DNA of 53,787 nucleotides, counting the filler, from Sluysia triapertura (Eukaryota), in assembly GCA_046118255.1 (NCBI GenBank). It is 3 parts of 3 records of this genome, joined end to end, with 100 filler letters (N's around TTAATTAATTAA, not from the genome) between each part and the next. Parts side by side here need not be neighbours in the genome. Positions count along the whole stretch, not along the records: positions 1 to 20,013 come from JBJNIA010035484.1; positions 20,114 to 35,198 come from JBJNIA010239883.1; positions 35,299 to 53,787 come from JBJNIA010140836.1. One strand, 5' to 3'. Shown here one piece after another: positions 1,056-44,100 of the stretch. The first letter of the stretch is position 1; each line of letters begins with the position of its first letter. The position numbers and the translations under genes were made by a program. Below the pieces are notes generated by a model. The model worked only from the letters and a program-made list of their open reading frames with translations. It searched no databases and was not told where the DNA came from.

Positions 1056-1843
1056 CTGTAATTAAAAAATGATTATTAATAATAATGTAAAATAAATTTT
1101 ATTTGACAACTATATTTCATTAGTCTAATGATTGGTAAATGACCTAACAAAATTTTGTTGTTATCATTAGAAGTTAGTTTTAAAAATAGAACTAGTGTGT
1201 TAAATTTCAATTTCAAAGATTTACCTTTATAAAACAAAAATATTCACATTATTTAAACATAGACATGTTCATATTTTTCGCTTTTATATATTCATAAGAG
1301 TTTATTATTAAATTCATCTACAATCTGATAATATTTTAAACTAATTTGTATTAAATTTTATAATAAAATGAATAATTACACAACATTTATGGTTTGTGTC
1401 ACATACACGATGCTTTATGTAAACGGTTTTTTAAACCATTCACGTAAACAATTATATTTTTATAATTCAAATAAAGTTTTACAGTGCGAAAAGAAATTTC
1501 TGTGCTGACCAACCCAATATCTTAGGGTTTAGTTTCAAAATATATACACCAAAATCACCTGTCACAATATTTCATAATTCATAATATTTTCAAACATTAC
1601 AAATATAAAATTACATAACATCAAATTCACATTTAATACCGAAAATCATCAATCACACACTTAAAAATTAGTCTAAAACATTTTAAATTAAATTAGTCCA
1701 ATATATCACACATTACATAACATCCTAACTATTTTCCATCAAAACCTTTTTTTATATTTTATTTCTTCAGATCCACTAAAACCATTTTTATACCTTAAAA
1801 CATTTTTTAATTCTTAATCTGACAACAGCAATCACATCCTAGT

Positions 1844-1864
1844 ATCTGCCAGTGGTTGACAGTT
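1844..1864. promoter_or_regulatory. CTGTCA-N5-TGACAG-type palindrome of family A
   Basis: CTGCCA-GTGGT-TGACAG here. Equivalents at 26351-26371, 42280-42296 and 42330-42350, plus an N4 variant at 26293-26310. Always upstream of the cargo ORF. Confidence 0.55.
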
Positions 1865-2245
1865 AATTAAACAAAACTGTATCAATAGTAATTAATGTTA
1901 ACTGTTAACAGCTGGATAATAAAAATTGTATTCTAAGCTATTATCTTATCTCTCGTTTTGGTTGCTCATTGAACATCACAACAATGTTAGAATTAATTTT
2001 TATTGATGATTCACCTTTTGAATAATTGTAAGTGGCATATTTATTTTTATAATTGAATATTTGGTGTATCAATCATATGAACGAACGTATACTAATGTTT
2101 TAACTCATAAAAATATAGTTGATTAATTTTAATAGGCAATTTTAGAAATAGTAGTATATCAAGAATCAGAAATAAACACTTAAAATTAGAAGAATAAATC
2201 ACTGAAAATTTATAGTACTGACAAAAGTATAAATCTTTTTCTATA

Positions 2246-3576
2246 ATGATAACAGCCGTACCTAAACTTTCAGATAATATTTCTAAATTAAAGTGGTAAA
2301 AACCGGTTAAAATTCAACAACATGCTATTTCATTATTGCTGGAACATAAAGATGTTATTGATTTATCTGTAACTGACAGCAAAAAACTACTCGTTATTGT
2401 ATTCAAGTAATTCAACAATATTTGGATAATGATCAGCCATTCATGTACCTAATGATTTTAATTCTCTCAGTAATTACTCAGTAATGCAAGAGTATTGTGA
2501 GATTTTAAAAATGAATGAAAGATTAAATTTGAAAAGAATGCGTTTGACTGGAGATATAGATATCACTGATCAATCAACAGAATTTAGTATTTCTGATATT
2601 CACATTATATTAGCTACTTCTGGTCGAATTTTATTGATACTTCATCACACTAGTCAAATTAAAGAAATTTTTTATTTTATTCGATACTTGCTGTTGACGA
2701 GGCAGATAAAATGATGCGTAATGAATTAGATGAAGAGATCGAAAGAATTTTACGAATATTAAATAAGAAAAGGAAAGAGAGAAATAAAAAGATATTCAAA
2801 CAATTCAAATTCACTCAACAATATGTTATAGTGATGCTAAAGCGAAGTATAGAATTATGTTTTATGATTCTCAACTTGTTGATGTCACATTAAAAAGCGA
2901 TATTCCAACACAGTTGAAATGTTAAGCTTTGACCATATCAAATCATACTGAAGATAAAGTTGCTCTTAAAATAATATGCGAAACATATATACCTAAAATT
3001 TTAGACTTTGTTAATGTTTACCCTGTCATATGGTCCTATGAATCCATTATAAACAAAATGAATATTAAAGATTTTCCAGCAGTATACCGAGAGTACTAAT
3101 GCCTCGCCGAAAATGCAGCAAAAACGTGAGCTTTCCCGAATCAAGTAATACACATGATATATTCCTTCACCGGTTTACTAACTGAGTACTGGATTTAGAA
3201 GATATTTTTATGAATTTCAATCTCAATGTTCCAAAAAAAGGTTGATATCTATCGTCATAGAATTGGGTATAATTCTACAAACTTTAATGAACGTTACGAA
3301 ACGTCTCTATGTCTGCATATGGCAACGCAAAAAGAAAAATGCACAAAATATGGTGCAAAATGCGTGTACCTCCACTCAATCAATGAATTCGAAGAGTTCG
3401 AAATCGATCCAGCAATTCGGATGACACACTACAGTAGAATAAATTACTTATTGGCAGATCTCAATAAATTTTCTTCGACATCACATCCCAATATAAAAGC
3501 TATCAAAACTGCTATCAACAATTCTACGACCAGATTTTCTTCTAATAACAATAAAGTAAACATTCATTATAATTAG
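2246..3576 (+). pseudogene. Decayed DEAD-box RNA helicase (DDX47/Rrp3-like) fused to a C-terminal CCCH zinc finger
   Basis: Read across stops and frameshifts: Q motif W*KPVKIQQHAI, motif I remnant SVTDS(K)KT, LTGDIDITDQS, Ib HIILATSGRI, II AVDEADKMM (GACGAGGCAGAT 2696-2707), VI NVPKK-VDIYRHRIG. Then YETSLC-x9-C-x6-C-x3-H (3295-3375). Confidence 0.8.
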
Positions 3577-4387
3577 AATGATGATATTTTAATTATATAT
3601 TTCTATTTGGTTAAAGAAACTGGATCTCGAAGAACGTGGCATATTTTGAAATTAACTATGATGAACATTTTTAAATTAATCATTATAAATAAAATTAGGT
3701 CTTCAATTTTGTTCTTTTGTAATGTGTTAAATTTTAGAATAATTTTATTCAATAATTAAAAAGTAAACATAATGTTTCTCAATATAACAAATTTTTATGA
3801 AATAAATAAATTGTTAAAATTCTTGAATTTCATAAGGCAACCAACCTTAAACCATCACAATTTCAAAGGATCAAATGAAAGATTTTTGGGAAAGTGATAA
3901 CAATAATTAAAGTTTTGGTTTAATGTTTTTGTTTCTAGATGTAAAATGATTTCTATATGTACTTTTATATATTTGTTACTTTTGTGTTTTCCAAAGACAA
4001 ACATATACTATTTGTCTTAGTTTCGATTGACAAGGTTTCCTAAAGAACCTATTTTCTTTGTAAATTCAACTTATAAATCAAACCATACAATTGCTTGAAG
4101 ATTTAGGAGTCTTTATATTTGTAACTGATCATTACCGATATTTTCTTTACAAATATCCTAGATTTTGGTAATATTAATCTAAATAAGCATGATGAAAAAA
4201 TGTTCAATGAATGTTACATCATTTTAAGATTATATTGTTTAATTATAACAAAGAAAGCGTTTAAATATAAATTATTATTATTTTTACATATTGATACTAA
4301 TAAAATTAGGGATCATTAACCCAATAATTTAAAAAACTCCATGAATCTATAAGTGAACACTATAAACTTATATAAATCCACTGTCAT

Positions 4388-5350
4388 TGTAGTGAGTTAA
4401 AACCCACAAAGATACATTCCCAAAAAATTGAAACACGTAAACTTCTACATATCATGAACAATAAATATTCATTTACTATTACATCCTCACATTCTCACAC
4501 ACTTATACACTCTTACATCTCAATAATCTCATTTACACGACCTAAATGTATATACTATAATCTTTATTTACATCAACCTAAATTAAACTTAAAATTTATT
4601 CTTGTTATTGTTATTACACAATCTATCTTGGTAATAGTTTCACACATTTAGAATGTTGTATCACAGAAATTGCCCTACGTGTTCTGGACGTTTTATAAAT
4701 CTAATTTTACTATTTGAGTTTCATTAAATTTAACAATTATGTAATTAAACGTATTTAGTGTAATATTAATTTTTTTCTATTGAATTCGTTTAGAGTGAAA
4801 AATCTGATTAAGTATACTATAAGTATAGTTTACAATATTATACATAATAAATCACAAAACGTAGTATAAATAGATTATTTCAAATATGCAACATAAGTAA
4901 AAGTGTATCATTTTATGTAAATTATTACTTTATTAAAGCTACTAATAGATGAAAGTTATTAAAAGTTTAAAGCTACTCTTTTCGTAATTATTAATAGCTG
5001 AAATATTAATATTGGAATGTAAGTCTATCCAAATCAGTTATTATTTATTAAGTATTAATAAATAAATCACGAAGTATTGAAAGTTTATAAAAGATTTAAA
5101 ATAAGAAAAATCAACTTAAATTTTTTAGATCAATGTGTTAAACTTGTTAATAAAACTTATTGTTATCATCTATAGTCTTATCTTTCGAAAATTTTCATTA
5201 AAATGTGCAATCGCTTCTATCGTTAGATCAGGACAAAAGACTCAACATTTTAATTGTGAATATTTGAATTTTAATAAAACCAATTTAAGCATTCTAACAA
5301 CCACTATAATATTGTTTATTAACAACGAAATAGCAGCTACATGACTCACG
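4388..5350 (+). mobile_element. Family B LTR-like element, 5' part
   Basis: Starts TGTAGTGAGTTAAAACCC followed by a G-poor arm, matching TGTAGTGAACTTAAACCC at 18369 and TGCAGTGAACTCTAAATC at 52306. The 3' end is not resolved. Confidence 0.5.
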
Positions 5351-6599
5351 AGATCGAATTATCCTGGTTTGGTAAATAAATAATTCATTTTCGTAAAATC
5401 ACCAACTTGATTATTCATCATTTCATTTTTACTTTAATGCGTTTATTATTATTTAAATTATTATTATTATTATTTGAATTTAATTCAATTTATTGCTATA
5501 TTAACTTTATATTCAAAAATTCAGTACAGTAAAATAAAATTTAATCTCAATTATATTTTCTATAATGATAATATAATCAAAAGATTACGATAATGGAATC
5601 TAAAACTAATCTTACAACTATCATTATCATTAATAAAAGCACGATATTCAAAATAACGAAAAATTATGAATTGTTATTATTGTAAATAAACTAACTAAAC
5701 TACATGTACTATACGAACTAATAAACTATCTAAACTACATGTACTATATATAAATTATTATGTATAGTTAGTGTGTAAAAAACTAATTAGTATAGTAATT
5801 TTAGCGATTAAATTTTAACATTAAATCTCTTTTAATTGTCAACTAATTTGTAGAATTAATTTTAATTTTTAAAGAAATTATTAAAATTTAAAGAAATTAT
5901 TAGGAATTATTATCTAAAAGTAAGTATAATTTAATAATCTAATAATCTAAATTATTATTTAAATTTAAAAGTGAATTTTAAAACATTTTTATTTTGTTTG
6001 AGTTTTGACCTTCAAGGTTGAAACTCACAGTATAAAGAGGTAACATAAACTTTCACACGCAATATTATTATAAATTTTGTCATTTACAATTTTGATTATA
6101 AATTTTTAATTCACAATTTTTGGCACTTTTGAAAAACGAAAATAATTTATCTTTATCCCGGATATTGGACAAGAACTTAATCGTTGCAGAACACTTTTAT
6201 AACTATGAATTTCATTTGATCTTGAAGAATCCAGAATCTTGTGATTCTATATTTTTGCAAAATAATAGTGAAAATATCGTTAGTTAATTTTTAGTAAGAT
6301 TTAGTAACATTTATTTTGCCAAGTAAACTATACGTAAAATAATATTTAACACATATTTTCACTAACCGATAAAACGATAGCAAAGTAAAATCCTTTAAAA
6401 AAATTTTATAACGACAGATATTCATTTATGGAAAATCCTATAACTTTTATATCATTTTATATTCATTGTTTTATTTATTATTGTATCAATTTTTGTTCAA
6501 TAAACCTTTAAGTTAAAACGGTGATTTTTGATTTTTAAATTTTGTTAATATTCATACGATTCTATTTAATTCGGAACCGGAGAAAATTACAAATTAAAA

Positions 6600-7110
6600 T
6601 CATTTATAAGAATTTTGGTAATTATTTAACTCTAAAATCTTAAGCAATTAAACGAAGTTAAGAAATCAAGATAATATAATAAGAGAACCTCCAGTAGTTA
6701 TAAATTATCCTTCTAAGAAAAATCCAACGGCTAACCCTAACAGCTAAGACTAGATACGTTGATGGACTCACCATAAACATTCTTTTATTCGTAAGACTAA
6801 GTTAAGAAATATAAATCAGTATTAAATAATTAACTCCTAATTAGTAACACAATAAGCTGCCCAATAAAGAAATTAAAAAGGAAGTTTAAAATAAAAATTG
6901 AAAGGATATTTCAAATTATTTAACTTTCAATTTTATTCAATAATAAAATTTATCTAAAAATTCAATTTTACTCAATAATAATCAAAATAACAATTAGTTG
7001 GGGAATTTCCTAAATTACCTAAAATTTAAATTCTTTTCAAAAAAATTAAGTAAAAGTAAAACTGTTGCCAAAATATCATGAATATTTACCAGACAGGTCG
7101 GTATTAGGCT
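6600..7110 (-). repeat. Family D repeat fragment with decayed minus-strand ORF
   Basis: 6710-6810 aligns with 12903-13000 (ggctaaccctaac...tacgttgatggactcac vs ggctagccctaac...tacgttggtggattcac). Confidence 0.55.
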
Positions 7111-7159
7111 GTTATTCACGTGATTGTAATTTGTATCATGTTGTACTAGTTGTGTTGAA

Positions 7160-7900
7160 AATTTTGGAACCTTTTATACTTTCGCACTATCCAATCACTC
7201 TTCAGTTTTATAATGAAAAATTCTCTTACACAAATCATTAGAAACTCCTTTGAGTATTCAATCTACAAAGACAGATTTGACAATTACATGGTATGGCGTA
7301 TCAAAACATAAAAATTTGATTAATGGTCAAAATTATTTTCTTCTATTTTAATTAAATTATTTCCCACATTAAAGTAACATTCATTAATATTGTCAATATA
7401 AATGAAAATAATGAATGTAACTTTAGTTTTTATAATTCAATTAATTTTTAGTTTTGCTCACCCCATTTCTAATGGAAAAGGATTAAGTTTCTTATTATCA
7501 AACAGACCATTCTATAAAGATTTAAAACCCATTTCTAGATTCTCCTCTTTCGGAGCAATCACCTCATATTCAATTCATTATTTTTTCATCATTCTAAATA
7601 TGGAACATTCAAGAATTAAGAATCAATTAAAATTTGATTTTCTCAATATTAAAACTTTTCTCGCATTAATTCAGTAAAATCATAACTTCATCAAAAGATC
7701 TTTTAAAAACACAAACAAACACAATATTCCGCATTTATGAAAGGTACTTTTTTTTAATTAAGTTAATTAAGATTTTAATTAATTAACCGATCTTTAGACT
7801 TAATCTTATTTTATGCTTAAAAGTTGTATTAAGGTTCTAAGGTTGTTTAGTACTTTAATAGGCACTCAGAAAGCTCTAGATGATTCATTATTTTGATTTC
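7160..7900 (+). pseudogene. Family C repeat: decayed gene with signal-peptide-like N-terminus and an intron
   Basis: ORF 7402..7677 starts MKIMNVTLVFIIQLIFSFA; GT-AG intron 7744-7797. The reverse complement aligns with 19560-20013, 39800-40480 and 50500-51280. Confidence 0.6.
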
Positions 7901-8926
7901 TTTCTCTACTTATTTATGTTAATTATTAGTGTATCCAATTTATCATATAGAATGCATTTTAAATTTAGATAATGAACCCACTGCTGAATCGAGTATCTTA
8001 CAACTTTTTTTAAGAAGGATGGCATAATGAGTGATGAAGGATACTGATTATTTTTATATAAGATCTTCCATGTGCTACAAAAGTAATGTCAAATACTTGC
8101 CTCTAAACACCATCATTAAAATCATAAGAACTCTCAGATTTTAATAAATTAAGAGCATTGACGCTGTGACATGCTATATTAAATCTGAAGTACATTTTTT
8201 GCATTTTGTACATAGTATTTTGAAAAAGCTCCTTTAGATGCTTATTAATTAAGAAGTTCACTATAAACCTGATTGGTTCACACCTTTTTTATCAGTTTCT
8301 TCCTTTGGTAATGTTTTAAAGTACAACTCATTATTGTCTTCAGCAGTTCTACTAAGAATCTTTATTTCAAGTATCACTTTACCTAATTTTATCTTATTTA
8401 GTATTCTAATGAAATAGATTTTAACTAAGTTTAAAGCCGCTTAAGGCCTGGCAAAACATATAGACTTGAATTTCCAGGGATGATTATATCAAAATTAAAA
8501 CAGTCTAAAACAAAATATAAAACAAAGTAATCATCATTTTTTATAACATGCATATGCCAATTAAATCTAACATAAAACTGGAACAATAATTTTGTAATTG
8601 TAAATGGGAAATGTATGTTTTTAGTTCTGTGTCATTTGGATGACTATTTACGATACATGCTTTATTGGAACTTAGAGTGACTAAGGAACGATTGGATCTC
8701 GACGGTTTAAATGCGTTAATATAGCTATATAGGACACAATCAGGTTTCATCATATTAATAATGGTGTCTTAAGTACAGCGAGTCATCATCAATTAACCTT
8801 CTAGTTTTACGGGAATCATTGGTTTGATTACGAATCATTGAATTAAAATCTTAACTCAATTTTATTAATTATATCATTTTTATTTCACAATTATCATCTC
8901 ATAATTATATAAGCATAAAACAATAA

Positions 8927-8988
<62 letters not shown>

Positions 8989-9089
8989 GATATATATAAT
9001 TGATAGTGATAATAATGAAACAGATAATAATTTACCATTTGCGATAGTAAATGTATAATAATTTATAAAATTTAAAATAATAATAATAA

Positions 9090-16949: not shown

Positions 16950-17435
16950 ATGAATGAAACTTTAAATCTATTTGGTAACAAAAGTTCTCTTACGCGATAT
17001 TTATGGATTATACATTTAATTGTATTTTTGATGGTTATATGTTTCTTTGTTGGTTCATATTTACATTATCGTTGGAAATCACGAAAGAAGCAACAAGCAA
17101 CATTTTATCAATTCTTAAAATCACGCCAAAGTCGTAATGTATTCAACAGAATTATTAATGATAATATACCAGTAACAAGTTATGCACCTAATCTTGACTC
17201 TGGAGCTATCTCTGAATCATCTATTAATATACAGAGTAATATAAGAAGCGGTAGTGCATTCGTAGCTGATAAAGATGCTTTTTTTGATGATAAAAATAAA
17301 GTGTTTATATCCAACTTAAATTATAAAAATCTTAATCAAAATAACAAACCTTACAATATTGCAGGATGCAGTGGTTTTAAGCCAAAAATTTCAATGTTCG
17401 TTGGAAAATCGTTTCAAATAAAATCAATGGAATAA
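16950..17435 (+). CDS. Single-pass membrane protein of unknown function, 161 aa
   Basis: Longest ORF in the track, intact. AAATG start context, N-terminal NET sequon, hydrophobic segment LWIIHLIVFLMVICFFVGSYL followed by basic RWKSRKK. Confidence 0.6.
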   Translation: MNETLNLFGNKSSLTRYLWIIHLIVFLMVICFFVGSYLHYRWKSRKKQQATFYQFLKSRQSRNVFNRIINDNIPVTSYAPNLDSGAISESSINIQSNIRSGSAFVADKDAFFDDKNKVFISNLNYKNLNQNNKPYNIAGCSGFKPKISMFVGKSFQIKSME

Positions 17436-18368
17436 AATCAATGTTTATTTATGGTTATATTGAAAATGAAATGCAAAAACACTTTAATCCATTCATTTAT
17501 CAATGACCAAATCGTAATAGATTTAATTTTATAGATTTGCATATTTTTAAGCTCAAATTTTCAAACAATTCGTTTGTGGAATGTAAAGGTTTTCTATTTG
17601 TATTAAGCATATAAATCAAATAAATACAAAGTACATTTTAAATAGTAAATGATAACAAAATTAGACATCATATTTTTGATATTTTAATGTGCTTTATGAG
17701 CTTGGATAAATTGCCTAATTATTATTTTTTTCATAAAAAATTTTGACTTCTAATTCTATTATTTTAGTTTTTATTGATATTTAATTTATTTCATTACATG
17801 TCTGCCTTTACCTATTTATTCATGCATCATTAATTTAATTCTTTATAATTTAATGCTTCATTATTGCATTTAGATTTATTTTGTAAATTTTGTTTTACAA
17901 ATAAATTATTTGGTTCACGATGAATTTTCTAATCTTCTACGGTATTTATGTAAATAAAAATATAATCATATTCTAGATGAAAAGGGGCAGGATTACTTTG
18001 GCGTTAATCATATATTAAAATTAGTTTCTTACATTCTAAAAGGGCCATTATCTAGAAGTCAAGATTGTATTCGTACCGTTAGGATAGATGTGAAATATGA
18101 ATTTTTATAACTAGTTCGAACTTTTATGTTTTACTGCAATTATTGCAGAGTTTGATATATGCAACGTTAAAATGACAGTTGTGAAATTCCTAAGTAATAC
18201 CAGTATTAATATGATAATTATAACATTCGCAAACAAAAGTAATATCCACGCTTAATTCTGCATTAAGTTTAATTTTATCCTTCTGGGTATTTTTTAACAC
18301 ACATTTAAACTCTAAAATTTTTAAGATTGAACCTGAATTTTAATTTACATATATGATGTGCAGTTTAA

Positions 18369-20013
18369 TGTAGTGAACTTAAACCCTAAACATAACAATC
18401 ACAAACAAACTTCTACTCAAAGTAAAACAATTCCTAGAAACTCAACAAATTACATAACATAACAGAGTTATTCGCAATTCAACAAATTTTTTACAATAAT
18501 TGGAAGATCTCATGTAACACCTTATGTTAAAGAATTACATTCGTAACCAATAAAAGCAAGAATAGAATTCAAAATCATGACAATAATTTACAAATTCTTA
18601 CATTTTACGGAAATCCTGGATATCTTTTAGAAATAATACGAAAATGGGAAACCAAGATGAATATTTCATTGAGGCATGATAATCTATACAGAATCCACAG
18701 TGATAACAAGCTAGCTGATAGGTTGTATACTGTTTATGTCTCAAAAATATACAACCAATTATCAGAGAATGTCAAATTATTGGAAGAAATGAGAGCAATA
18801 TAAATTAATATATTATTATTAACAATCATAACAATGATAATAGTACACACATTAACATTTACACTTTGCTAGTGTTTTTCTTAAAATGACCACTAAATAA
18901 TTAGATTATAATGACAAGGTTTGCCTACAGTTAACGAATTTATGCTTAACACGATGTTCCTGTAGGATTTAGTTATATTTAAACAAGGGTCTGTAAAACC
19001 TAATTTTAGAATTTTTCTACTAAAAATATTAGCTGTAATTTGAATTCTTATAATAGTTTCTTCCAATTACTATTATTCTTAATCTGTCTCTCAAATGAAT
19101 TCAAAGAAAATTATTTTTACTTTCTTATCGTGATTGATCTGGGAAAATATTGTTGGGATTAGAAGATGAGTAAGAGACACATATAAACACAAATTTAAGG
19201 ATGAATCGATACGAAGTGATAGACTGAACATTATAAACATTGTAGGAATAACAATCATGAAAGTAAAAATACCTATAATAATGTTAACAGCTGAAGAATA
19301 CCTTAAAGTTTCAAAGACCGATATAAGGTGTCAAGACTTTGTGAAAGCTTGAAACGGACTTGGAGGTATTAGAGTACCTTTGAGTTTGTGAACAGTGAGA
19401 TAATCTGAGACCCTATTAACCTTTAGGTATTCTTGATAAGAATCTTTGTTCTTCGAGTTAAAATCTTTACAATCTTTAAAATAGTTGAGAAATAAAATCG
19501 TTGTTATTGGTATTAAGAATAAATTTAGTATAATAATAATTAACATGAAGAAGTAGAAAAAGGAATATAAGCGGTGAAGTTGAAAACATCTTGAGCCTCC
19601 TGAATAGCTTTATAACCTCAATAAAACCTTTAAACATAGAATAAGATTCACTCTAAGTAGATTACGTACGTTTTTGTGAATAACTTTTGAATTTTTTTTC
19701 TGTTGAATTTGAAACTGTGTATGTATTTGTTTTGAAAAGACCTTTCGATGAAGGTATGGTTGAACCGAGTTCATGCAAAGAAGCCTTAATATTGAGCAAA
19801 GTCAAATATTAATTAATTTTTAATTATGGAATGTTGAATTTTTTATACTTAGAGTGATGCAAATGTAATGAATGGAGTATGAGATGATTTCTATGAAAGA
19901 GGAGAATCTATAAGTGAACTCGAAATGTTTTTAAAGTGGTTCGTTTGAGAATAAGAACCTTAAAACATTTTTCATTAGAAAATTTGGTGTGAAAAATAGA
20001 AAATTAATTAAAT
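18369..20013 (+). mobile_element. Family B LTR-like element with a nested L2 fragment and an antisense family C gene; truncated by the gap
   Basis: TGTAGTGAACTTAAACCC start and G-poor arm that resumes after 18820. Minus-strand hydrophobic ORF pieces (19331..19546) and family C homology at 19560-20013. Confidence 0.55.
18470..18820 (+). mobile_element. L2-clade LINE, 3' end of ORF2
   Basis: HVTPYVKELHS*PIKARIEFKIMTIIYKFL from 18511 resembles L2 HITPxLxxLHWLPVxxRIxFK. Also IYNQLSENVKLL and a (TAT)n tail. Confidence 0.75.
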
Positions 20014-20113
20014 NNNNNNNNNNNNNNNNNNNNNNNNNNNNNNNNNNNNNNNNNNNNTTAATTAATTAANNNNNNNNNNNNNNNNNNNNNNNNNNNNNNN
20101 NNNNNNNNNNNNN
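20014..20113. other. Assembly gap with synthetic TTAATTAATTAA six-frame-stop linker
   Basis: 44 N + TTAATTAATTAA + 44 N; identical at 35199-35298. Confidence 0.95.
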
Positions 20114-20478
20114 TAAACATCATATTATTATTTGTAAAGGGCTTATTTTATTACAAAATATTTAATATAGTATTATCGTGTTATCGCCCTAAATGAACTT
20201 GTATTCACCACCGCCCCCTGGATCCTTGCAGCGCCCACTTTGGGAATCCATGATATAGTGTTTTCATTATTTATCTCAAAAATGTATATTTGTGTCTCGG
20301 GAATCTTGATATACTTGATACAAAGTGCGTTATCGAATTCAATCCACACGTAGCTGCTTTTCGCACCGAAAGAGTGAAAATTTCAAGAAACAATACTTGG
20401 ATCTGAAAATAACCGAACCACAAACTTAAATAAAAATTAGATATCAAAAACGACAAATTTAATAAGTACATATAGTAT

Positions 20479-20750
20479 TTATAAATGTTCAAAATGTTCA
20501 CCTTGAACTTTAATACAAGAACTACTTCTTTTGACAACACCGCGACATACGTTATGGAAAGTTTCCTCTGAAATTTGGTTCAATTCGTGCTGAATACTTT
20601 GTTTTAGTTGATCATTTGTCCTAGGATTTTTATTATAAACTGGTTCCGGGGATCTAGAGGGCATTCGATTGGTCTTCGGCGTCCAGGAAATGTTTCAACA
20701 CCTTTGGAGTATTGCGCAGGTGCTCCATCTTGTTGAAAATGAAGGTCACT
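20479..20750 (-). mobile_element. Tc1/mariner transposase C-terminal fragment
   Basis: HFQQDGAP (~20718-20741), PSRSPE (WPPRSPDL-like, internally deleted), VYNKNPRT and terminal CIKVQGEHFEHL*. Confidence 0.85.
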
Positions 20751-24373: not shown

Positions 24374-24562
24374 CTTAGATGCACATTCTTTATTATTAAT
24401 ATTTCTATCTAAATAGTTTCTTTTTAGACATTCTAATACTTCCGTGGGTGTGTGACGATTGTCATGTTCTAAATATCTGAGACATAAATTGTTAATAGAA
24501 TCATGGCATTTCTCTTGAAGGAATGGGTCCAAATGAAAATCTCTATTAGAGTCTACTATAAT
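24374..24562 (-). CDS. GLG1: Golgi glycoprotein 1 exon, penultimate Cys-rich repeat
   Basis: tttAG|IIVDSNRDFHLDPFLQEKCHDSINNLC...EVLECLKRN...KECASK|GTaatc, 189 bp, phase 0. Splices in frame to 22314. Confidence 0.9.
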
Positions 24563-25593
24563 CTAAATAAAAAATATCAATGTGCTGTTATTTTAAAACC
24601 TTTTATTACATCTTATGAATAACACTCATTCCATAGTTCAATTTTCATCTTAGCGTGACTTTAAAGTTTAAAAATTGATATAATATAATTACAACTAATA
24701 CATTCATATAAATGTAAATTTAACTAAAATGACTAAAATAACTAAAATAGTATAGTTATTATAGAATAACTAGAATTTATTAATATCGAAATTTATAATA
24801 TAGTAAAATTATAATATAGTGTGAAATTAGAATTACTGACTATAGTATATTAACTATAGTATTTATTAATAATGGAATAATTATTGTGTGATTAAATTTA
24901 TAGTATAGTAAATAAATATTGGAATTATTGAAATCGAAATTATGGAAATAAATAGTATTGGAATTTATTATATATAAGGACCAACATTACCACAATTATT
25001 ATCAGTTTTATATTGAAAATACTGAAAACTTACCACAATTATTATCGGATTTGTAACAATTCCATTGATGACTATTGTTAGGTTTTTAATTATATTTGAT
25101 TTAATTGAGGAGAAAGAGAATTCAACAATACAAATTCAACAAATTAATATAAAATAATACTTAAAATCACCATTAAATTACGAGTGGTATCCTTAACTTT
25201 GTTAAACATATTTTATTATATAGTTTTGTGTGTATCTTTTTATTCCGTTTAAGTTCAGGAAAGGATAAAGTTTGAAATTTTAAATTTATAAAATTTCGTA
25301 AATTTCCATCTTGTACATCTGAGGTGAGCAGAGACTTCAACCTTAAGATAAACTTTGACAATTTTAAAGAATAATTTAAAAAATATAATAGAAAGTCAGT
25401 AAATAACAAAGTAAAACTAAAGATCAGATCGCGAGCCCTTACACTCTCTTCAACATTCTCTTCATCTTCACTTTCAGAATCCGATAAAAATTTGCAGCAC
25501 CTTCATGCATAACATTCAAACATTACCATGCTAACTTTCTTCATTGTCTGAAAAATTACTTCAATATAGAATTTTGCTTGCCTGAACTCACTT

Positions 25594-27642
25594 TGTGGTG
25601 GCCAACCTTAGTACTTAAAATTTTAATTTAATTCAGCATAATAAAAATTACATTCTTGTAATATTCCACCTTTTATTTCTTCAAAAATCATTAAAAATGT
25701 AAATATATCAAAACATTTTAAGTTCACAATTTGATAACATTAAAATCCTTCATAACATCGAAAATCATTAAATTTACATTTTAAATATATTTCAAAACAA
25801 TAATAATAATCTAAATGGAATTTCTTTTACAATCTCTTTTTATAATTTTTATTCTTTATATTTTTATGATCATATGCATACCTCAACAACCTCAAGTTTC
25901 ATTATTTTAGCATTGCGCAACAATTAAAAGATTTATAAAGTATTTGAGGAATTAGAAGAATTAGAAATTGCAAGAAGCATACTTGCTCAACAGGATCCAA
26001 GTAATAAATAATTAAAGAACATATAGAACAAATTTTCAAGACAATAAATATTTATAAAAGTCACATAAACAAACATAGTAAGAAAAAGAACATGTTCAGA
26101 AAGAATTTCTTTTCAAGAAAAAGAAGTTATAAGAGTTTTATGTTACTTTCATGTATTTTTATTTAATTATTTTTAGTATTTTATATTATTTTATCATATT
26201 ATTATTATTATCATTATTATTATTATTAATTATTATGATTATTAACTATTCACATTATTATTACAATCATTGTTGGCCAGTTAATTATATTAGCTGTCAA
26301 TTTGGACAGCAGTTCAATTGTTTAATTTTATACAATTAAATTGGTTATACAACTGTCATTGGTTGACAGTTTCATTATTAAAAAGATATATGATACACAG
26401 CAGCAGATGAATCTCTTTTATTGGCCATCCAATTGTATTCATTTTTATCATCATTTTTAATTAGTCGCATCATTAGTTTAACTACAATTAATACTTAGTT
26501 AATTTTATGAGTTAAAAAATAAAACTCTGCCGTAACTGTTTGATTTTAAAGACTTTGGAGGCAAAATATTGGAACTTTCAGCTTATATTATTATTCTTTA
26601 TTAAAACAAACAAGTCTTAAATGGGTAATCATGATTTTAAAACAGAACTGGAACTTTTAATTAAACCAGTCAAAACTTTATTCAATATGAAAGGATTGAA
26701 TTAGTTATTGATACTCGTGTATACGATCGTAAAAAAGAAAGAAATATTTCATCATTTAGATTTATATAAAGACAGTATGATTAATGTATCAGGATAGAAG
26801 TATTATGTGAAATGAAACTTTGTCAGTACAATAGACATTTATTCTACTCATTTAATGAATATTAATTATGAATAAAAGACTTGATAAAAACGCAATGTGA
26901 AAGAATTTAAAATGAGTGACATCAAAAATAAAGAATGTGTTAAAGAAGTAAATGCTATGATCGAACATATTGATGTATCATCCAACACAATATCAAATAA
27001 ATATCTGAAATGCGATTTTGATCAAGATCATTACAAAACCGCACTATGTTTGTTTGGTACAATTAATTTAGATATATGCCTCAAATATGGCCGTATATGT
27101 CCGTATGCTTACAACGTACCAGAACTATTTTATCATTCATTCAATAACGCTAACTCTAACATCAACTTGGATCGCATTAACAAGCTATTTGCTTCATTAG
27201 AAATTAATTCAATCAATTCAAATCCTCAAATTAATAACGACATGATTCGTGGTAATCCTAGTAGACATTCAACTATGCTAATGACGATTCTAAATTAGAA
27301 GTAAATTTTGCTTTTATTGAATTTTTAGTTCATAATGTTTCTGTATTCTTACTAAGATTATACAAATTTATGCAACTTGTAGTATATCAAAATATAAGAA
27401 TACAAACATCTTTATTCAATTTATATCATAATTAATAGATGTTTAGAATCTTTGGTATTTTCCATTTCGAAAGAATTGTAATAAATGAAAACTTTGGTCA
27501 TTATTTTGTAAATTTTTACATATTACAATTAATAAAAAGAAATAATAGAGTTTTAACTTGCATTTTAATAAAAACTAATAAAATTATTTATAATTTAATT
27601 GCATTCAATATATTAACATTTCATAATTCTCCAAACACTTCA
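25594..27642 (+). mobile_element. Family A copy 2
   Basis: Starts TGTGGTGGCCAACC after CACTT and ends ...CCAAACACTTCA, with CACTT at 27641-27645 overlapping the terminal CA. Shares the 5' arm, palindromes and zinc-finger ORF. Confidence 0.75.
26560..27298 (+). pseudogene. Decayed cargo ORF: unknown N-terminal domain plus CCCH-type finger (H>Y)
   Basis: HYKTALC-x9-C-LKYGRI-C-PYA-Y-NVPEL (27032-27112), followed by RINKLFASL, which parallels RINYLLADL in copy 1. The upstream part is broken by stops. Confidence 0.7.
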
Positions 27643-27899
27643 CTTATTTCTCGAATTTTTTCCAATATCTGTCTCACTGACCATGCAGACATATTCCGGA
27701 TTGCAGTAAAACACAAGGCCAATGGAATGTAACGGAAACTGTCTCTTACAAGAACTTGATTTCTTATAGGCTCTGATCTTTACTTTCTGACTCTAAATGT
27801 ATAATTTCATTCATATTTCATTTAGAACTATGCCTGTAAATTTCCGATAAGAGTCCATTCTGTTTATACATTACGTTCTATGGATCCGATCGGGTTGTA

Positions 27900-28990
27900 A
27901 AAGTGTTCACTCCGAAACCAAACCTACATGTAAGGTTCAGATAAATAAAACATCCGTCTGACTGTAAGTAGAATTTGGCATACAACATAAGCTTAATACA
28001 GAGAAGGTAAAATATGTGCCGGTGTTTCCTCAAAAAAGAAAAATAAATACAAAAGAAAACGAAAAGATTATTCTGACAATTTAGCTCAAATAAAGTCGTT
28101 GAGGAACGATTCGCAGTCTTTCTGTCGTAATTAATATTCAAAATCAACTTTTTTGATACATTTAAACAGCGAAACTATTTAAAGCGAATATCTTCTACAG
28201 TTAAACCTACTTTAACAGATAAAATAAATGGGAAAGTTTACAGTTTTGCTTGTCAATGGTAAATTTTACCAGTAACGGAGATTTTCTTTTTGATCATTTA
28301 TGACTACGTTCATATTGACGAAAAATGGTTTTTTCTTAGTAAAATTAAATGCTCTTATTACCTAATGTTAAACGAAGAAACTGAAAAAGCAAAAGATTTA
28401 TTACTAAAGTAATGTATCATGGTTCGACCACGCTATGATATACATTGAAAGCATTATTTTGACGGTAAAATTTGAATATGCCCTCGCACATCAAGAACAG
28501 GATCAAAGAAATTCTAAGATCAAACCTAAAGAAACAAAATAACGAAAATGTGGAATATATTACAGGTGTACATCGTAAAATGATTATAGAAAATGTTATT
28601 CCAGCAATTAAATCAAAATTTCCGAAAACCTATAAAAATAAAACGATTTACGATTTTTCTGAAGAATATGAAGATATTGTTAATGTAGGTTCTGCTGATG
28701 GTTGGAATATTAGATTTAAGTCACGACGACCAAAGAGTCCTGATTTAAATGTACTTGGATTTGGGGTTTTTTTACTCAATATAATCGTCGCAACATAAGT
28801 GATTTTATTCAAAACCATTTAATAAATTAGAAGGAAATACTCTTTATAACGTTTTTACCACATTACAAATATGTATGGAACGAATTATGCTAACGGGTAG
28901 AGAAAATTCTTATTTAAAATTCCTCATAAATAAGGCAAATATTAGCTGAAAAATATTTATGTTCCGAAGAGACGTACGATAGGGCCAAAT
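27900..28990 (+). mobile_element. DD39D-type Tc1/mariner transposase remnant
   Basis: YVHIDEKWFF (~28305-28334), KRFITKVM, RPRYD, FDGKI, MIIENVIPAIKSKFP, GWNIRF...PKSPDLNVLGFG and NVFTTLQICM; frameshifted. Confidence 0.85.
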
Positions 28991-31101: not shown

Positions 31102-31167
<66 letters not shown>

Positions 31168-35198: not shown

Positions 35199-35298
35199 NN
35201 NNNNNNNNNNNNNNNNNNNNNNNNNNNNNNNNNNNNNNNNNNTTAATTAATTAANNNNNNNNNNNNNNNNNNNNNNNNNNNNNNNNNNNNNNNNNNNN
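35199..35298. other. Assembly gap with synthetic linker
   Basis: 44 N + TTAATTAATTAA + 44 N. Confidence 0.95.
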
Positions 35299-35980: not shown

Positions 35981-36936
35981 ATAGTGACTATTGGGTTTGA
36001 TAAGTGTTGAACACCTCTTTATCCTTCACTAATCCCAACAGAAAATGTTAATAAATTAGTAATGAAATGCCAATTAAGTAGAAATGTTGTTAAAATGATC
36101 TAATGATAAGTTTTATGGTTTTGTACTGGATGTATCAAAATAATATAAAATGATATTAATATATCGGATTGAATAAGAGGAGTATAATAAAAGTTTAAAA
36201 CATGTAATACGTTTTGTTTATGGGATTTCTGCTGTTTTTACATAAAATGGTGTAAGTTTGATTTTGAACCACCACGTGATACTCTTCCGAGACGCAGAAC
36301 ACATAAAATAAATGTAATAAATCCTTTAAAAATTCATTTTATCTGTGAATATTCCATTTTTGTTCAGTATTATTGTCGGTAGACCAAAGGAGATTAATAT
36401 GGTATTTTATTGATTCGTTTTGGTGATTGACCAGCACTGTTCCTTGTTTTTCCCATCGATATTTAGAGTGGCGGTATTGTTACGGTTTTACATTTTTAAA
36501 TTAACGAGAATTATAAGGCAAAATTAAATGAGTCTAAATCTCAATATATTCTAACTGTATCACAAAGTGTATCACGACATAAATCAGATAATAGTTTGCT
36601 CAATATAAATAAGTCTTTATGACAATTAATTATAATTTATTATAAACAAATTTCCAAATAATTAAATAAAATATAAATCAATTATAATACTCAATCCTAG
36701 AGGTTACGCAATATGTATAAATGTGCAGTGTAAAGAAAATCAAATAAGGAATTATAATCAAAATGAATTATTTTTCATTAATGTAGAATAAAAATTGCCA
36801 ATGATGATGAATATTAATATAAAATATTCATATAAGAAACATTCAATTAATTTAATTTTTTCATTCTGTTTTTGTTTTAATTACTTTTTTAGTCAAAAAA
36901 TGTTAAGTAAAAAACATTGAAGTCACAAGATTTAAA

Positions 36937-37466
36937 ATGTTTTTAAACAGTAAAACTACAATTTTATTAGCGTGGGGCATTTCTGCTGCAATTGGATATT
37001 GTATTTACTTTGACTATAAAAGAAGACGTGACCCAAATTTTAAAAGAAAACTTATAGAAAGTAATTTAGTTTTATTAGTTAATGATTTTCATAGAACGAC
37101 ATAAAAGACTTCAACAAACTAATATTGTTTTACCACCTTTACCAGATTTGACGAAAGTAGATACTAATCAGTATTTTCTTGAACAAATTCAATACGGAGA
37201 GCATTTTTTAAGTTGTGGTAAAATAGATGAAGGTGTGGAAAGGCTCGCATTAGCATTATGTGTTTGCAAAAATTCTGAAAATTTAATGAAAGTTATTCAA
37301 AAAACGATATTACCTGCTTATTATGACAAATTATTAAAAGTATATCCAATTGTGAAAAAAGTTTGTTTTTAAAATTAATTTTTATATATTCTATTAGCAA
37401 TTCCAGGAGCATGTTCAAAAAATTGAAAAACAATCTCTTATTATAACAGAGGAGCCACTTGAATAA
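36937..37466 (+). CDS. TOMM20: Mitochondrial import receptor Tom20, 3 exons (36937-37060, 37095-37360, 37398-37466), 152 aa
   Basis: AAIGYCIYFDYKRRRDPNFKRKL signature, YFLEQIQYGE...EGVERLALAL and acidic end EEPLE*. GT-AG introns of 34 and 37 nt with matching phases. Confidence 0.96.
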
Positions 37467-38284: not shown

Positions 38285-38586
38285 CAGTGGTGTCAAACCA
38301 CTTTGACACCACTGTATTAAGGTAATAAAATAAATTAATGTACTAAGATGCAATATATATACTATGTATATACACTATATAATATATTGTATTATATAGT
38401 ATAGAAGTACTTGACCGCCTGTAGTACTTTTATTTTTAGATGTTAATAAATGAATTAAAAATTTAATTAATCCAGCTTGATCATCGTCAAAATAACGGAT
38501 GAATATTCGTGTACCTATCCTGGTATTGTTTGTAAATACACGGGCCGCATGATTTGCCTCCGCGGGCCGCCACTTTGACACCACTG
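38285..38586. mobile_element. hAT (Charlie-like) MITE
   Basis: TIR CAGTGGTGTCAAA / TTTGACACCACTG with subterminal GCGGGCCGC motifs. An extra right TIR at 38302-38314. No perfect 8-bp TSD. Confidence 0.75.
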
Positions 38587-39779
38587 GTTTAAGGTGACAC
38601 AAAAATACGTGCTATTCAAGGCCCACTTCCTTTATCCACATAGAAGGGTCTAGCTATTTTAAAAGAGTGTTTTTTTTGTATATATACGCAAATTAATTTT
38701 ATAAATAATCTTATTAATAATTTTAAAATAAAATTATTTGTGAAAGAATATCTTAGTGATTTTAATGTATTCTGGAATCAAAAAGTAAACGAAAGAAAAT
38801 AAATACAGTAAATAAATTCATCAGGCCAGATTTAGTGGTTAGAAAAAAGCTGACAGATTTAATGGTAGCATCAGAAAAGGAAAATAGAAGGTAGATGTTA
38901 CTAAACACACAAGGATTTTTGTTCTTTAATTCTAAATTCTTTAATTTAGACTTATGTCAATTACATCAAGTTAATGTTAATAAGTACATTAACTTAATTA
39001 AAAATAGATTTCTAAAATCTTTCTCTTAATTATGTACTCTCTTCAGTTGCATTATATTATTAACTACATTTGTATCATTATTGAAATAATTTTTTTATAT
39101 ATCATAACGAATTTAGTTAATTAGTTCACTTTTTGAAAGAAGGATTTAATATAAATATTAAAATTTGAACTATTCTCAGAGACAAGTTAAAAACTAACTT
39201 CTATTAGAACAATTATAAACTAATTTGATTTGATTTTCAAATATTTGTAAGACTAATCAATTATAACATAATTATATTAAGTAAAGCAGACACTTAACAA
39301 TGTGCTAATGATGTTAATAATAAAATCCTGTTGAATATTTCTACAACATGTTTGTGTTTGTTACTAAAATAAAGTAACCATAATGATCCAGTTGATTATA
39401 GTTGAATAAATTAAATAGCATATATTTATAATATGTAAATTATTTCATATTATTATTGTTTTACATATGCGGTCCATTCAATAAGTAATAACGAGTATAA
39501 CATCACTAACGTTTACGAAGTAGTTGTCGAAGATTAATGGTGCCATTTTATTTGAATCAACAAGGTAATAGCTAAGAAAGACAAATTCAAAGAAAACAAA
39601 TTATGTGAAAACTTAAATTTTATCTATAATTATTTTATTTAAATTATTTATAATATTTTGAGATCATTGAATGAACTTCAAATTACCTTAAAAATCTTTT
39701 GAAGCATAAAGATAATAGCAAAGACAAATTTGGTTTGTTAATAGTTAGTATAAAAAAGTAGAGAAAGAAGTTGGAGTGG

Positions 39780-40480
39780 TGAAGATTAAATGCCTTCTGA
39801 ATGCCTTCTGAAGCAAAAAAAACAACTTTAAAACCTTAATAAAACCTTTAAGCATAAAATATAGCATATTCCAAAATTAGATTAAAAACATAATTAAAGA
39901 AAAATACCATTTTATAAATAAATTTTAAATGAGCAATGTCACGATAAAGTTTGTTTTAGTAAGATCTTTCAATAAAGACATAGTTTGACTGAGTTTAACC
40001 AAAGAAAACATTAGTATTGAGCAAAGTCAAATTTTAATTAATTATGATTTAAAAAATATATTAAATTTTTATAACTAGAATGATGAAATAATGGGAAATT
40101 ATTGTTATGGAAGGGCATAATTTAGAAATAAATTAAAAACCTTTATAAAATTGTTTGTTTGAGAATAATTGGATCTGAATAATTAAAAATTAATTAATTT
40201 TCTAAAATCTAAAATTAAATTCATTATTTTTATTCATATTGCTACTACTAGTGATTGTTATTTTAATGTGAGAAGTAATTTAAGAAAAACAAATCAAATA
40301 GAGTAGAAGAAAATACGATATGATCATTAATCAATATTTTGTATTTTGTACTTAATGAAGTTTGACAAATAGTGCCACGTAATTATTAGAGTTGCACTCT
40401 GGACTTAATGGTTTGTGTAAGGAATATTTGATTGGACAATGAGAGAGTTACAAAAAAGGAGTAGTTGTAATATTTTATTA
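39780..40480 (-). pseudogene. Family C repeat copy
   Basis: Shares aataaaacctttaa, tattgagcaaagtcaaat, ttttaatgtgagaagtaatttaag and gattgga with the other copies. Confidence 0.65.
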
Positions 40481-41134
40481 ATATTTGGCTAAAAGAATAA
40501 AGAAACCAATAGTTAGGGTATTATTAATTTAAAATTTTAATTGGGCTTTGAATTGGACCTATTTTATTTTTATTTTTTATATTTTTAGTTCATTTAAATT
40601 AAAATTTTATTTAAGAAATTTATCTTAGATAACATTCCCTTTTGAATTACATATTTATATTGTCGAATGTTATCGAAAAGAGTTAGACCTTTCCTAGAAA
40701 TTAGTGACAGACTCGTTTTTATATTTAAACTTTTCATTTGGACATTATAATAGTTATTACGTTGTTTACTGTATTATTTATTTATAAAAATATTTTGCTA
40801 ATAATAAAATATTTATATTATTAGTTTTGTGTTTTCGTAATAGTTGTAAAATAATCAAAGTTTATAATCCTTAACATTACTACTTTCCTTTCTTGTTAAA
40901 TATTTTATTTATTTACTCAGTGCCCAAATCCATAATTATAATCTAAGAAGGGCACTTGTTTAAATGTATAAAAACGTGTACAAATATTCACTTATTCAAA
41001 TAATATATGATAATAATAATAATATTTTGCAATAAAATCAACAAAAGTAGCTGTTTTTTGTATAACTATAAATTGGCATTTATATTTTAATTCGTTGAAA
41101 AATTTTATAAACTACGGTTTCAATATTATGCTTT

Positions 41135-44100
41135 ATGTTAAGAGAAGAAGCAAGAAGAAGAGCAGAAAAATTTGTTACAGTTCGTAAAAAAGTAAGCCAC
41201 TATTTTTTATATTTTTTATAATTTTATAATTATAAAATTCAAAGTTATCATTCAATAATAATAATAATAATTATAATAATAATATTTCTTTATTTAGATT
41301 GAAATTACTTCAAAATCATTTACACAAATGATTTCATTTTTAGACATATGGAAGCCAGTCAACAAGGCCATTAGTGAATATTATGATTCAGGTAAAATTT
41401 AATTAATTTTTCTGAAATACAATTTATTGTTTGATATTATTTAAAATAATTTTTGTACAAAATATTAAAATTATGCAGAAGATTTAATTAAATTATAGTG
41501 GCCAACTTTTTCATTCAAAATTAAAATTATTATTTTACACGAAATGTCACATCCACTAACATCTTAGATTTTACCTTTCAGATCCATTAAATCCTTATTT
41601 TTATTTTTTCCAAAATAGTTAAATTCACAACCTCATAACGTTACAAACAAACGTACTTTCAAAACCATTAACGTACATCTAAGTTTCATTCAAAACATTT
41701 TAATTCACAATTTTACAACATTAGAATCACAATTTACATTTCTAATTGTCAAATAGTTATTTCGAAATTAATCCAAAACATTTCAATTACACAATCCATC
41801 AACACTTAATCTTTAGCATCTGTGGAAAACATTAAATCCACATTTTAAAATCACTTTAAAACATAATCAAAAATACGATTTCTTTAACATCTTCGCAAAA
41901 ACTCATACTTAAAACCATTCTAAACATTCGGATTCAAATAAAATTTTATTTAAATTAATTGTATATATTCTATTAAAGGAAGATTAAGTTTACACAAAGA
42001 AATAAAGATGTATGCAATTTTATTTATTTATATGTTAAAGAAAAGAATTTTATTTTCAAAGAATTATAAGCTCATTTGATGAATAAAGAGAATAAAGTTT
42101 ACGTATTATTATTATAATTATAATTATTACTATTATTATTTTGTCTGTTCTATTTAATATAATTATTATCATTATTTTAATCATTTTATTATTATCATCT
42201 TCATTTGATTATTATTATTATTAGTCTAACTATTTATATTAATCCATTAAATCATTTTCATTATCGTATTGATTGAAACCTGTCATCAGTCGACAGTTTT
42301 TTTATTTAATTTCGCGTAGATAATTTTGTAATTGTCAACTAATGACAGTTGCTTAGCCTATTAAATCACTCGTAGTTGTTATTAAGTACAGTTCTGTGTT
42401 GTTGTGCCTTAGATTGTGATTCAGTTTTAGTGTGTGTCATTGTTGTTTTGTATTGTTGTGACTTTCAACAAATAGTTCTTAATGCAGACGACCAATAAAA
42501 ATGTAAAAAGAAGCACCGCAAAACCTAAATAATAAGTAAAAAATTTCTAACAAATTTTAATTAATGTTTAAAGAATAAAAAAATTCTGACTTTATCTTAA
42601 TATTAAGAATAAATTTAATAATGGATGAATTAATTTTATTATCATTTGCTAAATTAGAATTAGACGATCGTTCAAATAAAGCTTGTATAAAGTTGTCTGA
42701 CAATTATAATATATTAGTAATGCATGGAAGAATTATGAATTTTATAAGATAAGGAAATACCATTAGATTCAAGGCTAGATATATTGATCATGAAAAGGAA
42801 TCACTTACAGTTTCTAATACTATATTAAATTTTAAATCAATTATGAAAATTGATAAAGGATTTCAAGAATGGGATATTGTAACTCCCAATGAAACGTCAT
42901 TTGGATTAAAAAATGATCTTAATTTTTTATTCAATATCATTAATCATGTAGATTCGTATCAAAATTTCAATAAAATCAATATAAGCGAATCCATCTTTGG
43001 TTATAAGTACGTATCTCATTTCTCCAAATTTTAGTATTGAACAAGATTTAATTGTAAAGTATCTACAATCTCTAATGAATATAATGATGATAAAAATAAA
43101 CAAAGTATGTCCGATCTGATCGACCAGGGGATCAATCATTTTAAACCGTCTATGTCTAATCTAAGTGGAATTTCTTGTATGGATAAAATTTCCATCTCAG
43201 TTAAGCGAATCCGACATTGTCGTTATTTCCTTAATATCTTTGAATCAAATTATCATGACTCTTGAGTGATCTACTCATTTCAGTACAAAATAATGCACCT
43301 GATCATAGATTGCAGGCTAATAGAATTCTCACTGGAACTACGAGTAATATTGAACCTGGTAGTCGGTTTAACAAGTCAAAAGTTAAAGTAATTTTAAATA
43401 TTTATCTTACATTGACATATTGTTTTTTTATTTATTATTGAGAGATATAAGTAATCTAAGTGACAAACATATAAAATTAACAATTTGTAGTATATTTGTT
43501 TATTTCAATTCAATGTATAATAAATTTAGGTCTTTTTATTTTATTACTTTATTCAACAAAAGAGCAAATGACGAAATTTTTAAATTTAATCTCGTTAGTT
43601 TGTGTTATAATTGGAAAAAATATAAATTTAATATAATTAATGTTAATTTCTTTAAAACAGTTTACAATAGTGCTATAATCATAAAACATTTAATCCAAAT
43701 TTACCTAAATAAATAACACAATAAGTAAAAACCATTAAATACTTAAACAATAAGTAAAACTATAATCAAATGTGCATTTTGTTTCGTCTTTAATTCTATG
43801 AACCAAATGAATATCTCACATTTATCGTTATCGCAATGTATATATTAAAATGCAATTACCAATACCAATTCAGTAATAATTGAATATCAAATGTGCATCG
43901 TTTATTTGAACGTTAAGTAATTTATGAATGTGAAGTAATTTACTGAAATGTTATGGAAGCAACAAATGTAAATGCTTGTACTCAATAATCAAATTCTAAC
44001 ATAAAAGTAAAACAATCAAAAATCGTACTAAATCAATTTATAAAAAATTAATTAAAAAGTTTAAAAACTATTTTACAACACTTCAAATTTATCTAGAATC

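Follow-up and report, generated by a model that had tools for sequence, protein, structure and literature searches.

An AT-rich stretch of genomic DNA from Sluysia triapertura (assembly GCA_046118255.1; 53,787 nucleotides, filler included, hereafter the window) contains three related and decayed copies of one repeat, termed family A, the first of which carries the remains of a DEAD-box helicase core fused to a CCCH zinc finger between ends like those of a long terminal repeat (LTR). With modest preference, these copies are read here as solo LTRs left by a lineage of LTR retrotransposons in which the LTR would have carried a gene in its unique 3′ (U3) part, as the LTR of mouse mammary tumour virus (MMTV) does with sag (PMC4667437), and into which a helicase mRNA would have been captured by template switching. 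Membership in an LTR lineage is unproven, as no parent element was found in the window, and all three copies are unable to make proteins. Together they amount to about 13% of the window. All coordinates are those of the whole window, in which copy 1 extends from 1501 to 3859, while copy 2 starts at 25594 and copy 3 at 41494 (Table 1).

The relatedness of the three copies is seen in their left parts as well as in their reading frames. A scan of both strands allowing up to two mismatches located the start motif TGTGGTGGCCAAC at 1501, 25594 and 41494 only, copy 3 beginning with TA rather than TG, and the first 300 nt of the copies contain 4.0, 5.3 and 5.3% G, respectively. Homology of these G-poor 5′ arms is pronounced between copies 2 and 3 (z 9.0; none of 596 window controls as high) and lower for copies 1 and 2 (z 3.3) and copies 1 and 3 (z 3.4), each of these values being equalled by 3 of the 596 controls. 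Additionally, the palindrome CTGTCA-N5-TGACAG, searched with at most one mismatch, occurs four times in the window (1846, 26353, 42280 and 42332), always within a copy, with 0.01 occurrences expected. Copies 2 and 3 are homologous over their full length (global DNA alignment z 9.1; 0 of 40 shuffles as high), and so are their frames (1 of 3000 shuffles as high; profile score 65 versus a background maximum of 46), while copy 1 shares with copy 2 an arm match of 98 nt (67%), the palindrome and the finger (z 10.6). The start motif, the G-poor arm and the palindromes on which the original prediction had grouped the copies are thus confirmed, and the copies are related repeats of one family; the single sense open reading frame (ORF) ascribed to each of them is broken in all three cases. 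Fourteen further G-poor arms or repeat copies in the window gave no clear match to the three 5′ arms, the best being 50450 on the minus strand against copy 1 (z 3.4-4.1), and a profile of the finger found no third one in the window.

Copy 1 has the TG...CA ends and the 5-bp target duplication that the original prediction had cited as the footprint of retroviral-type integrases, whereas clean ends are missing in copies 2 and 3: six of seven terminal bases of copy 1 are complementary (7 of 15 and 15 of 40 over longer ends), and ATTTC stands exactly duplicated on both sides. Its representation in public data was assessed by aligning contigs of run X1 to positions 700-8700 at 80% likeness, a range that, of the three copies, holds copy 1 only. 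The summed contig depth, which is not a copy number and may moreover derive from the source sample of the window itself (both points weighing against the solo-LTR reading), was 56-93 in the three bins before 1501 and 26-95 in the six bins after 3903, and the bins across copy 1 gave 7226, 2377, 292, 997, 1614, 979, 549, 575 and 347. The first of these values belongs to the bin 1501-1767 in the 5′ arm, where depth reached 25228 at 1765, and 53 contigs diverge from the sequence of copy 1 at 1652. Exact contigs with a depth of 13-15 span both junctions, and others with 10-14% different letters cover 2285-2682 and 3089-3678, the latter crossing the junction between helicase and finger. Run X2, which contains no more than short fragments of copy 1 (depth 2-3), was left out of the evidence. 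The family of copy 1 is multi-copy, cargo included, with sharp ends, and its 5′ arm is much more abundant than its cargo.

The DEAD-box helicase predicted as cargo of copy 1 was recovered with a profile built from five E. coli DEAD-box proteins and aligned across frame breaks, which scored 83 over 2261-2776 (38 controls, maximum 32) and 40 over 3189-3267, comprising motifs V and VI (96 controls, maximum 32). In the PDB, DDX47 was the best match for two of three fragments (E 0.001 and 0.21), while the third matched CGH-1 and DDX41 and a Vasa-like protein came second for one fragment; Pfam DEAD gave weak but correctly ordered matches (E 0.015 and 0.019). What remains shows motifs Q, I, Ib, II, V and VI in order, with motif I degenerate and III and IV not recognised; the stretch between the two matched parts gave no match. 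Three frame shifts and one stop disrupt the first helicase domain, further breaks lie downstream, and a protein search with a helicase fragment returned no relatives. From the Q motif to motif VI the whole core fits into 1007 nt, too short a span to accommodate introns; the finger starts nine codons past motif VI. In contrast, the intron candidates (GT-AG) of a host gene of the window, encoding Tom20, measure 34 and 37 nt, as judged from sequence only. The cargo of copy 1 is hence a whole, though broken and apparently intronless, DEAD-box helicase core fused to a CCCH finger.

This finger is complete in copy 1, with a Y-x-T lead-in, and recurs in copy 2 with Tyr instead of His as last ligand. 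Together with the following RINxLxAxL stretch, the two align with a score of 97, reached by none of 200 shuffles, so the predicted sharing of the module holds. Its description as an atypical finger does not, as it aligns gap-free over 60 columns, RINxLxAxL stretch included, with the Unkempt-like protein P0010 (probability 96%), which gives E 5.5e-25 for Pfam zf-CCCH_UNK and is the only one of 11 fetched proteins to share the 9/6/3 spacing of both copies. The PDB matches are TIS11-type and Unkempt fingers, and Pfam PF25427 scored 27.3 and 23.8 bits, under the gathering cut-off of 31.1. Among 1.84 billion representatives the finger profile had ten matches, none below 1e-10; the five examined comprise three ordinary TIS11-type proteins (P0001, P0003 and P0009), P0010 and the two-finger protein P0008. 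The latter, 250 aa long and encoded on a Logan contig of 3221 nt, has x6 between the second and third Cys and aligns over 58 columns to the finger profile. Related loci were not found in metagenome or viral contigs. Most likely, the module derives from a host Unkempt-like gene, and it may alternatively be of TIS11-type origin; fingers of both kinds bind mRNA. When copies 1 and 2 are compared, conservation is 0.59 at second codon positions versus 0.39 at third ones (pN 0.49, pS 0.66, for a pair near saturation), a modest sign of past constraint at the protein level. A remnant of the finger, also predicted for copy 3, did not reach significance on its own (equalled or exceeded by 43 of 60 and 5 of 60 shuffles).

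Copies 2 and 3 contain six stops each, in 225 and 260 codons, respectively. No helicase is detectable in them, in keeping with the different N-terminus that had been predicted; their common N-terminal domain had no Pfam match and one chance PDB match, and its fold prediction (pLDDT 33) was not used. The idea of a worn helicase in this place was tried and is unsupported, the profile scores of 19.7 and 23.6 lying below the highest background value, 27. For the frame of copy 2, no relatives were found in public protein sets, and the ESM Atlas returned generic CCCH clusters only, below 0.9. The flanks of copy 2 (25330-25593 and 27646-27960) are GC-richer, at 30% and 36%, and contain stop-free minus-strand stretches with no Pfam match; copy 2 may be inserted in an older coding sequence, and the reading phase of the flanks did not decide its right end. 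At ends of 27642 for copy 2 and 44085 for copy 3, five of seven terminal bases match.

Taken as a unit, copy 1 resembles one LTR. Characteristic end motifs and an AATAAA/GT-rich layout have been described for LTRs (PMC3601003), and copy 1 would fit a single LTR by its 7-bp end repeat, its 5-bp duplication and an AATAAA that lies about 170 nt from the end and precedes a T/GT-rich stretch. Direct terminal repeats are absent from all copies (first versus last 400 nt; z -1.2 to 0.9), none of four tests being significant (32, 191, 183 and 94 of 200 shuffles as high), and so are long terminal inverted repeats, the sole significant inverted match in copy 1 being internal (1683-1720 with 3715-3752). 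This absence argues against two-LTR elements as well as against Ginger transposons. On the plus strand, the layout would run from the G-poor arm over the palindromic sites, the ORF and the poly(A) signal to a short tail; judged by the ends, the LTR could be read in either orientation, and an antisense ORF is possible. The ancestral ORF would have ended in the Unkempt-like finger and the stretch behind it, and on the branch of copy 1 a spliced host DEAD-box mRNA, DDX47-like, would have been joined in frame to this finger, the simplest route being a template switch within U3 while the element was reverse-transcribed. As U3 content is copied to both LTRs and stays behind when these recombine and the interior is lost, one ORF between one TG and one CA, a single duplication and the lack of gag-pol would all be explained. 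In an active element, the protein would probably have been an accessory RNA-binding factor for the element's own RNA or for host mRNAs.

Several observations weigh against this reading. The combination of TG...CA with a 5-bp duplication is at chance level (15 in the window versus 15.3 in shuffles), and such chance pairs being common, the mobility of copy 1 needs separate evidence, namely that from depth. Copy 2 has no duplication at 27642; the 5-mer on its left, CACTT, is found again at 27636-40 and 27641-45 and would give an end without CA. Likewise, copy 3 lacks an exact duplication at 44085 and has a 4-of-5 match at 43681. Copies 1 and 3 are only weakly alike over their whole length (z 1.6; 5 of 40 shuffles as high), and the similar 3′ arm of the original prediction was not recovered: a first set of comparisons was significant in 0 of 6 cases (z -0.9 to 0.5), and in a second set nine of ten values lay below z 1, the tenth (z 2.5) being equalled by 69 of 750 window controls. 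What the 3′ regions of all three copies do share is AATAAA with a GGTC motif, chosen after the copies had been seen, and AATAAA with a GT-rich stretch at 3688, 27480 and 43519, likewise picked post hoc and matched three more times outside the copies. Paired copies, gag, pol, a primer-binding site or a polypurine tract were not seen in the window. Given the degenerate Walker A of copy 1, it is possible that the family never had an active helicase. As for domains, the predicted lack of gag, pol and transposase was borne out in the subsets of frames scanned: 13, 41, 91 and 10 frames held no Gag, reverse transcriptase or integrase domain (of 129 frames of at least 55 aa, 57 passed a composition filter and 41 of these were scanned; 91 were chosen from 392 of at least 38 aa), and the frames of the copies had no Pfam match to an integrase-like transposase. 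What stands of the proposed gene-bearing solo LTR or non-autonomous element is a mobile, LTR-like and gene-bearing copy 1, by its ends, duplication, depth and lack of long terminal repeats, together with two related copies that have no clean ends of their own.

Other origins of such a unit are conceivable. Non-autonomous elements standing on their own, mobilised by a transposase of integrase type in Ginger-like or Pack fashion and never part of a larger retrotransposon, would agree with the absence of gag-pol domains from the frames scanned; moreover, Ginger ends share the TGTNR pattern, TDD-4/5 make 5-bp duplications (PMC2836005) and GingerRoot carries gene fragments (PMC6839031). Ginger terminal inverted repeats, however, are 40-270 bp long, compared with the few matching terminal bases of copy 1, and the lack of introns in the helicase speaks for an RNA step, so that this origin is considered unlikely. 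Somewhat less probable still are LTR-mediated retrocopies, in which the cargo would have taken the place of the interior between two LTRs, either very short or decayed, and the arms would be remains of separate LTRs. This mechanism is common in animals, yields chimeric genes and permits further retroposition (PMC5131818), but it leaves a 5′ and a 3′ LTR, and no direct repeat links the two ends of any copy, even though copy 1 kept its ends exactly. Least credible of all is the spread of a host CCCH gene family by segmental duplication with TG...CA ends arising by chance: the host type of the finger and the frequency of chance pairs would suit it, yet copy 1 is bounded by depth steps at its motif-defined ends, its 5′ arm greatly outnumbers the ORF, the flanks are low-copy and all three ORFs are pseudogenes.

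A different question is what the fusion protein did, if anything. The helicase of a solo LTR could have been a passenger, captured by chance and multiplied with the element, with no role and no interchangeable effector system, and this stands as a substantial minority possibility. Two cargo types in three copies, dead ORFs throughout, the degenerate Walker A and the lack of relatives in public protein sets fit well with it; the helicase is in frame, however, with a finger showing protein-level constraint between subfamilies, and at least one diverged paralog also has the fusion. As this view differs from the solo-LTR reading in function only, the two overlap, and a passenger helicase is nearly as likely as an accessory RNA-binding role of the protein. 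The interchangeable cargo of the original prediction is in any case overstated, because there are only two types, the helicase and the one domain shared by copies 2 and 3, which a single capture explains. Nothing found bears on its further suggestion of effectors against host RNA silencing, which appears rather improbable: the general fact that both domains bind RNA speaks for it, while the finger is Unkempt-like and DDX47 leads the matches for two helicase fragments (CGH-1 and DDX41 for the third), despite the Vasa-like protein in second place for one. To our knowledge, neither the DDX47 nor the Unkempt family is a known factor of the PIWI-interacting RNA pathway. The DEDDy ORF3s of rotifers offer a precedent for RNA-acting accessory genes (PMC5408684). 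A bolder extension of the solo-LTR reading, doubtful at present, would make this invertebrate LTR a gene cassette with a fixed promoter and an Unkempt-derived finger, ahead of which host mRNAs were captured in frame, the very abundant arm hiding many more cargo types. If so, each solo LTR would be a complete new chimeric gene, within a system of exon shuffling directing captured enzymes to RNA.

Table 1. Features of the three family A copies (window coordinates; a dot marks features without strand)
Feature	Position	Strand	Basis and remarks
Copy 1, whole LTR-like element	1501..3859	+	TGTG...CACA ends; ATTTC at 1496-1500 and 3860-3864; depth steps
Copy 1, G-poor 5′ arm	1501..1860	+	G content, arm homology, depth
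Copy 1, CTGTCA-N5-TGACAG-type palindrome	1846..1862	.	Motif scan, 1 mismatch; candidate promoter site
Copy 1, broken DEAD-box helicase core, Q motif to motif VI	2261..3267	+	Profile scores 83 and 40, background maxima 32; best solved-structure match DDX47
Copy 1, C-x9-C-x6-C-x3-H finger (3295-3375) and RINxLxAxL stretch, Unkempt-like	3295..3462	+	Alignment, profile
Copy 1, candidate poly(A) signal, AATAAA then T/GT-rich stretch	3688..3730	+	171 nt before right end; motif defined post hoc
Copy 2	25594..27642	+	Right end uncertain: 27635, 27640 or 27642
Copy 2, palindromes	26294..26369	.	Motif scan; 26294 (spacer 4, 1 mismatch), 26353 (perfect)
Copy 2, reading frame	26621..27298	+	6 stops; N-terminal domain, finger 27032-27112, RINxLxAxL to 27199
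Copy 3	41494..44085	+	Starts TA; right end uncertain, 43681 or 44085; no exact duplication
Copy 3, palindromes	42280..42348	.	Motif scan; 42280 and 42332, 1 mismatch each
Copy 3, reading frame	42621..43400	+	6 stops; homologous to copy 2 frame by shuffles and profile score; finger not recognisable by itself

The surrounding DNA, with a GC content of about 0.15-0.29 per kb, is that of an animal, since exons match Pfam Cys_rich_FGFR (22021-22314 and 24335-24562, minus strand) and MAS20/Tom20 (36907-37369). A protein search with Tom20 returned no relatives. Runs of N around TTAATTAATTAA at about 20014-20113 and 35199-35298 are presumably artificial contig linkers; the three copies may therefore lie on unlinked contigs, and adjacency across the linkers is not to be assumed.

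The window holds several other repeats. A second family, unrelated to family A, has four copies at 7300-7900 (plus strand) and at 19600-20000, 39760-40500 and 50460-51290 (minus strand), with pairwise z of 27-71; its abundance in run X1 is very high, depth reaching 676,000 near 7787, one copy includes a 24-bp tandem array at 50971-51090, and CCAAT- and TATA-like motifs were noted by eye near 40430-40460 and 51230-51260. Additional G-poor arms at 52258, 18340-18560, 4388 and 31240 (plus strand) and 29820 (minus strand), three of which start with TGT[GA], probably represent further LTR-like families, those at 52258 and 18340 being homologous to each other (z 7.5-10). Broken frames at 28000-28900 (plus strand) and 20440-20800 (minus strand), which we take to contain Tc1/mariner transposase motifs, have no Pfam support. 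Moreover, an element of about 300 bp resembling a miniature inverted-repeat transposable element lies at 38286-38586, its terminal inverted repeats starting CAGTGGTGTCAAA; a tRNA-like sequence at 53224-53295 on the minus strand (Rfam tRNA, 36.3 bits; not found by ARAGORN) is a pseudogene or the head of a short interspersed nuclear element; and an intact frame of 161 codons at 16950-17435 on the plus strand has a transmembrane-like segment and no convincing Pfam family.

Read in this way, family A would be a variant of gene capture by LTR elements, with the proviso that LTR membership is unproven. LTRs are "ordinarily non-coding", MMTV sag being the standard exception (PMC4667437). A gene-bearing LTR in an invertebrate element that combines a host RNA-binding finger with a captured helicase would, if confirmed, be a second independent case, and solo LTRs would constitute a route by which ready-made chimeric genes are scattered through a genome. 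A literature search by title and beginning of the abstract, including passages of PMC4299795 and PMC8278194 and with subscription journals and Repbase largely outside its reach, turned up no LTR containing a CCCH finger or a DEAD-box gene.

Among known systems, Ginger1, Ginger2/Tdd and GingerRoot (PMC2836005, PMC6839031) resemble family A in TG...CA-type ends, duplications of 4-6 bp and, for GingerRoot, gene capture, and are set apart by long terminal inverted repeats and a transposase, neither of which is present in the family A copies. The domains as such are familiar: the finger has the 9/6/3 spacing of Unkempt-type CCCH fingers (PF25427) and the helicase the motif order Q to VI of DDX47-type proteins. 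Unlike in Unkempt-type proteins, the finger is single, scores below the Pfam cut-off, stands behind a helicase or another domain and is part of a broken frame in all copies. The bdelloid elements Juno, Vesta and TelKA with their variable ORF3 (PMC5408684) and planarian Burro (PMC6431247) are likewise invertebrate LTR elements with variable, host-like accessory domains, which unlike those of family A lie in the internal region; CCCH and DEAD are absent from the main text of the rotifer paper, as is CCCH from the review. LTR-mediated retrocopies (Tan et al. 2016, PMC5131818) share with family A the captured intronless host sequence, the chimeric ORFs and the amplification. There, however, internal ORFs between two LTRs are replaced, and template-switch capture was shown for such internal regions, whereas the cargo of family A lies between one TG and one CA end. 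Closest are the LTRs of MMTV-like betaretroviruses, in which a protein gene, sag, lies in U3 and which are mostly left as gene-bearing solo LTRs, 490 of 527 sag-bearing contigs being of this kind (PMC4667437). While MMTV is a vertebrate retrovirus with one superantigen cargo, family A belongs to an AT-rich animal with short introns and forms units of 2.0-2.6 kb with a host-type CCCH finger, two different N-terminal domains and no parent element in the window.

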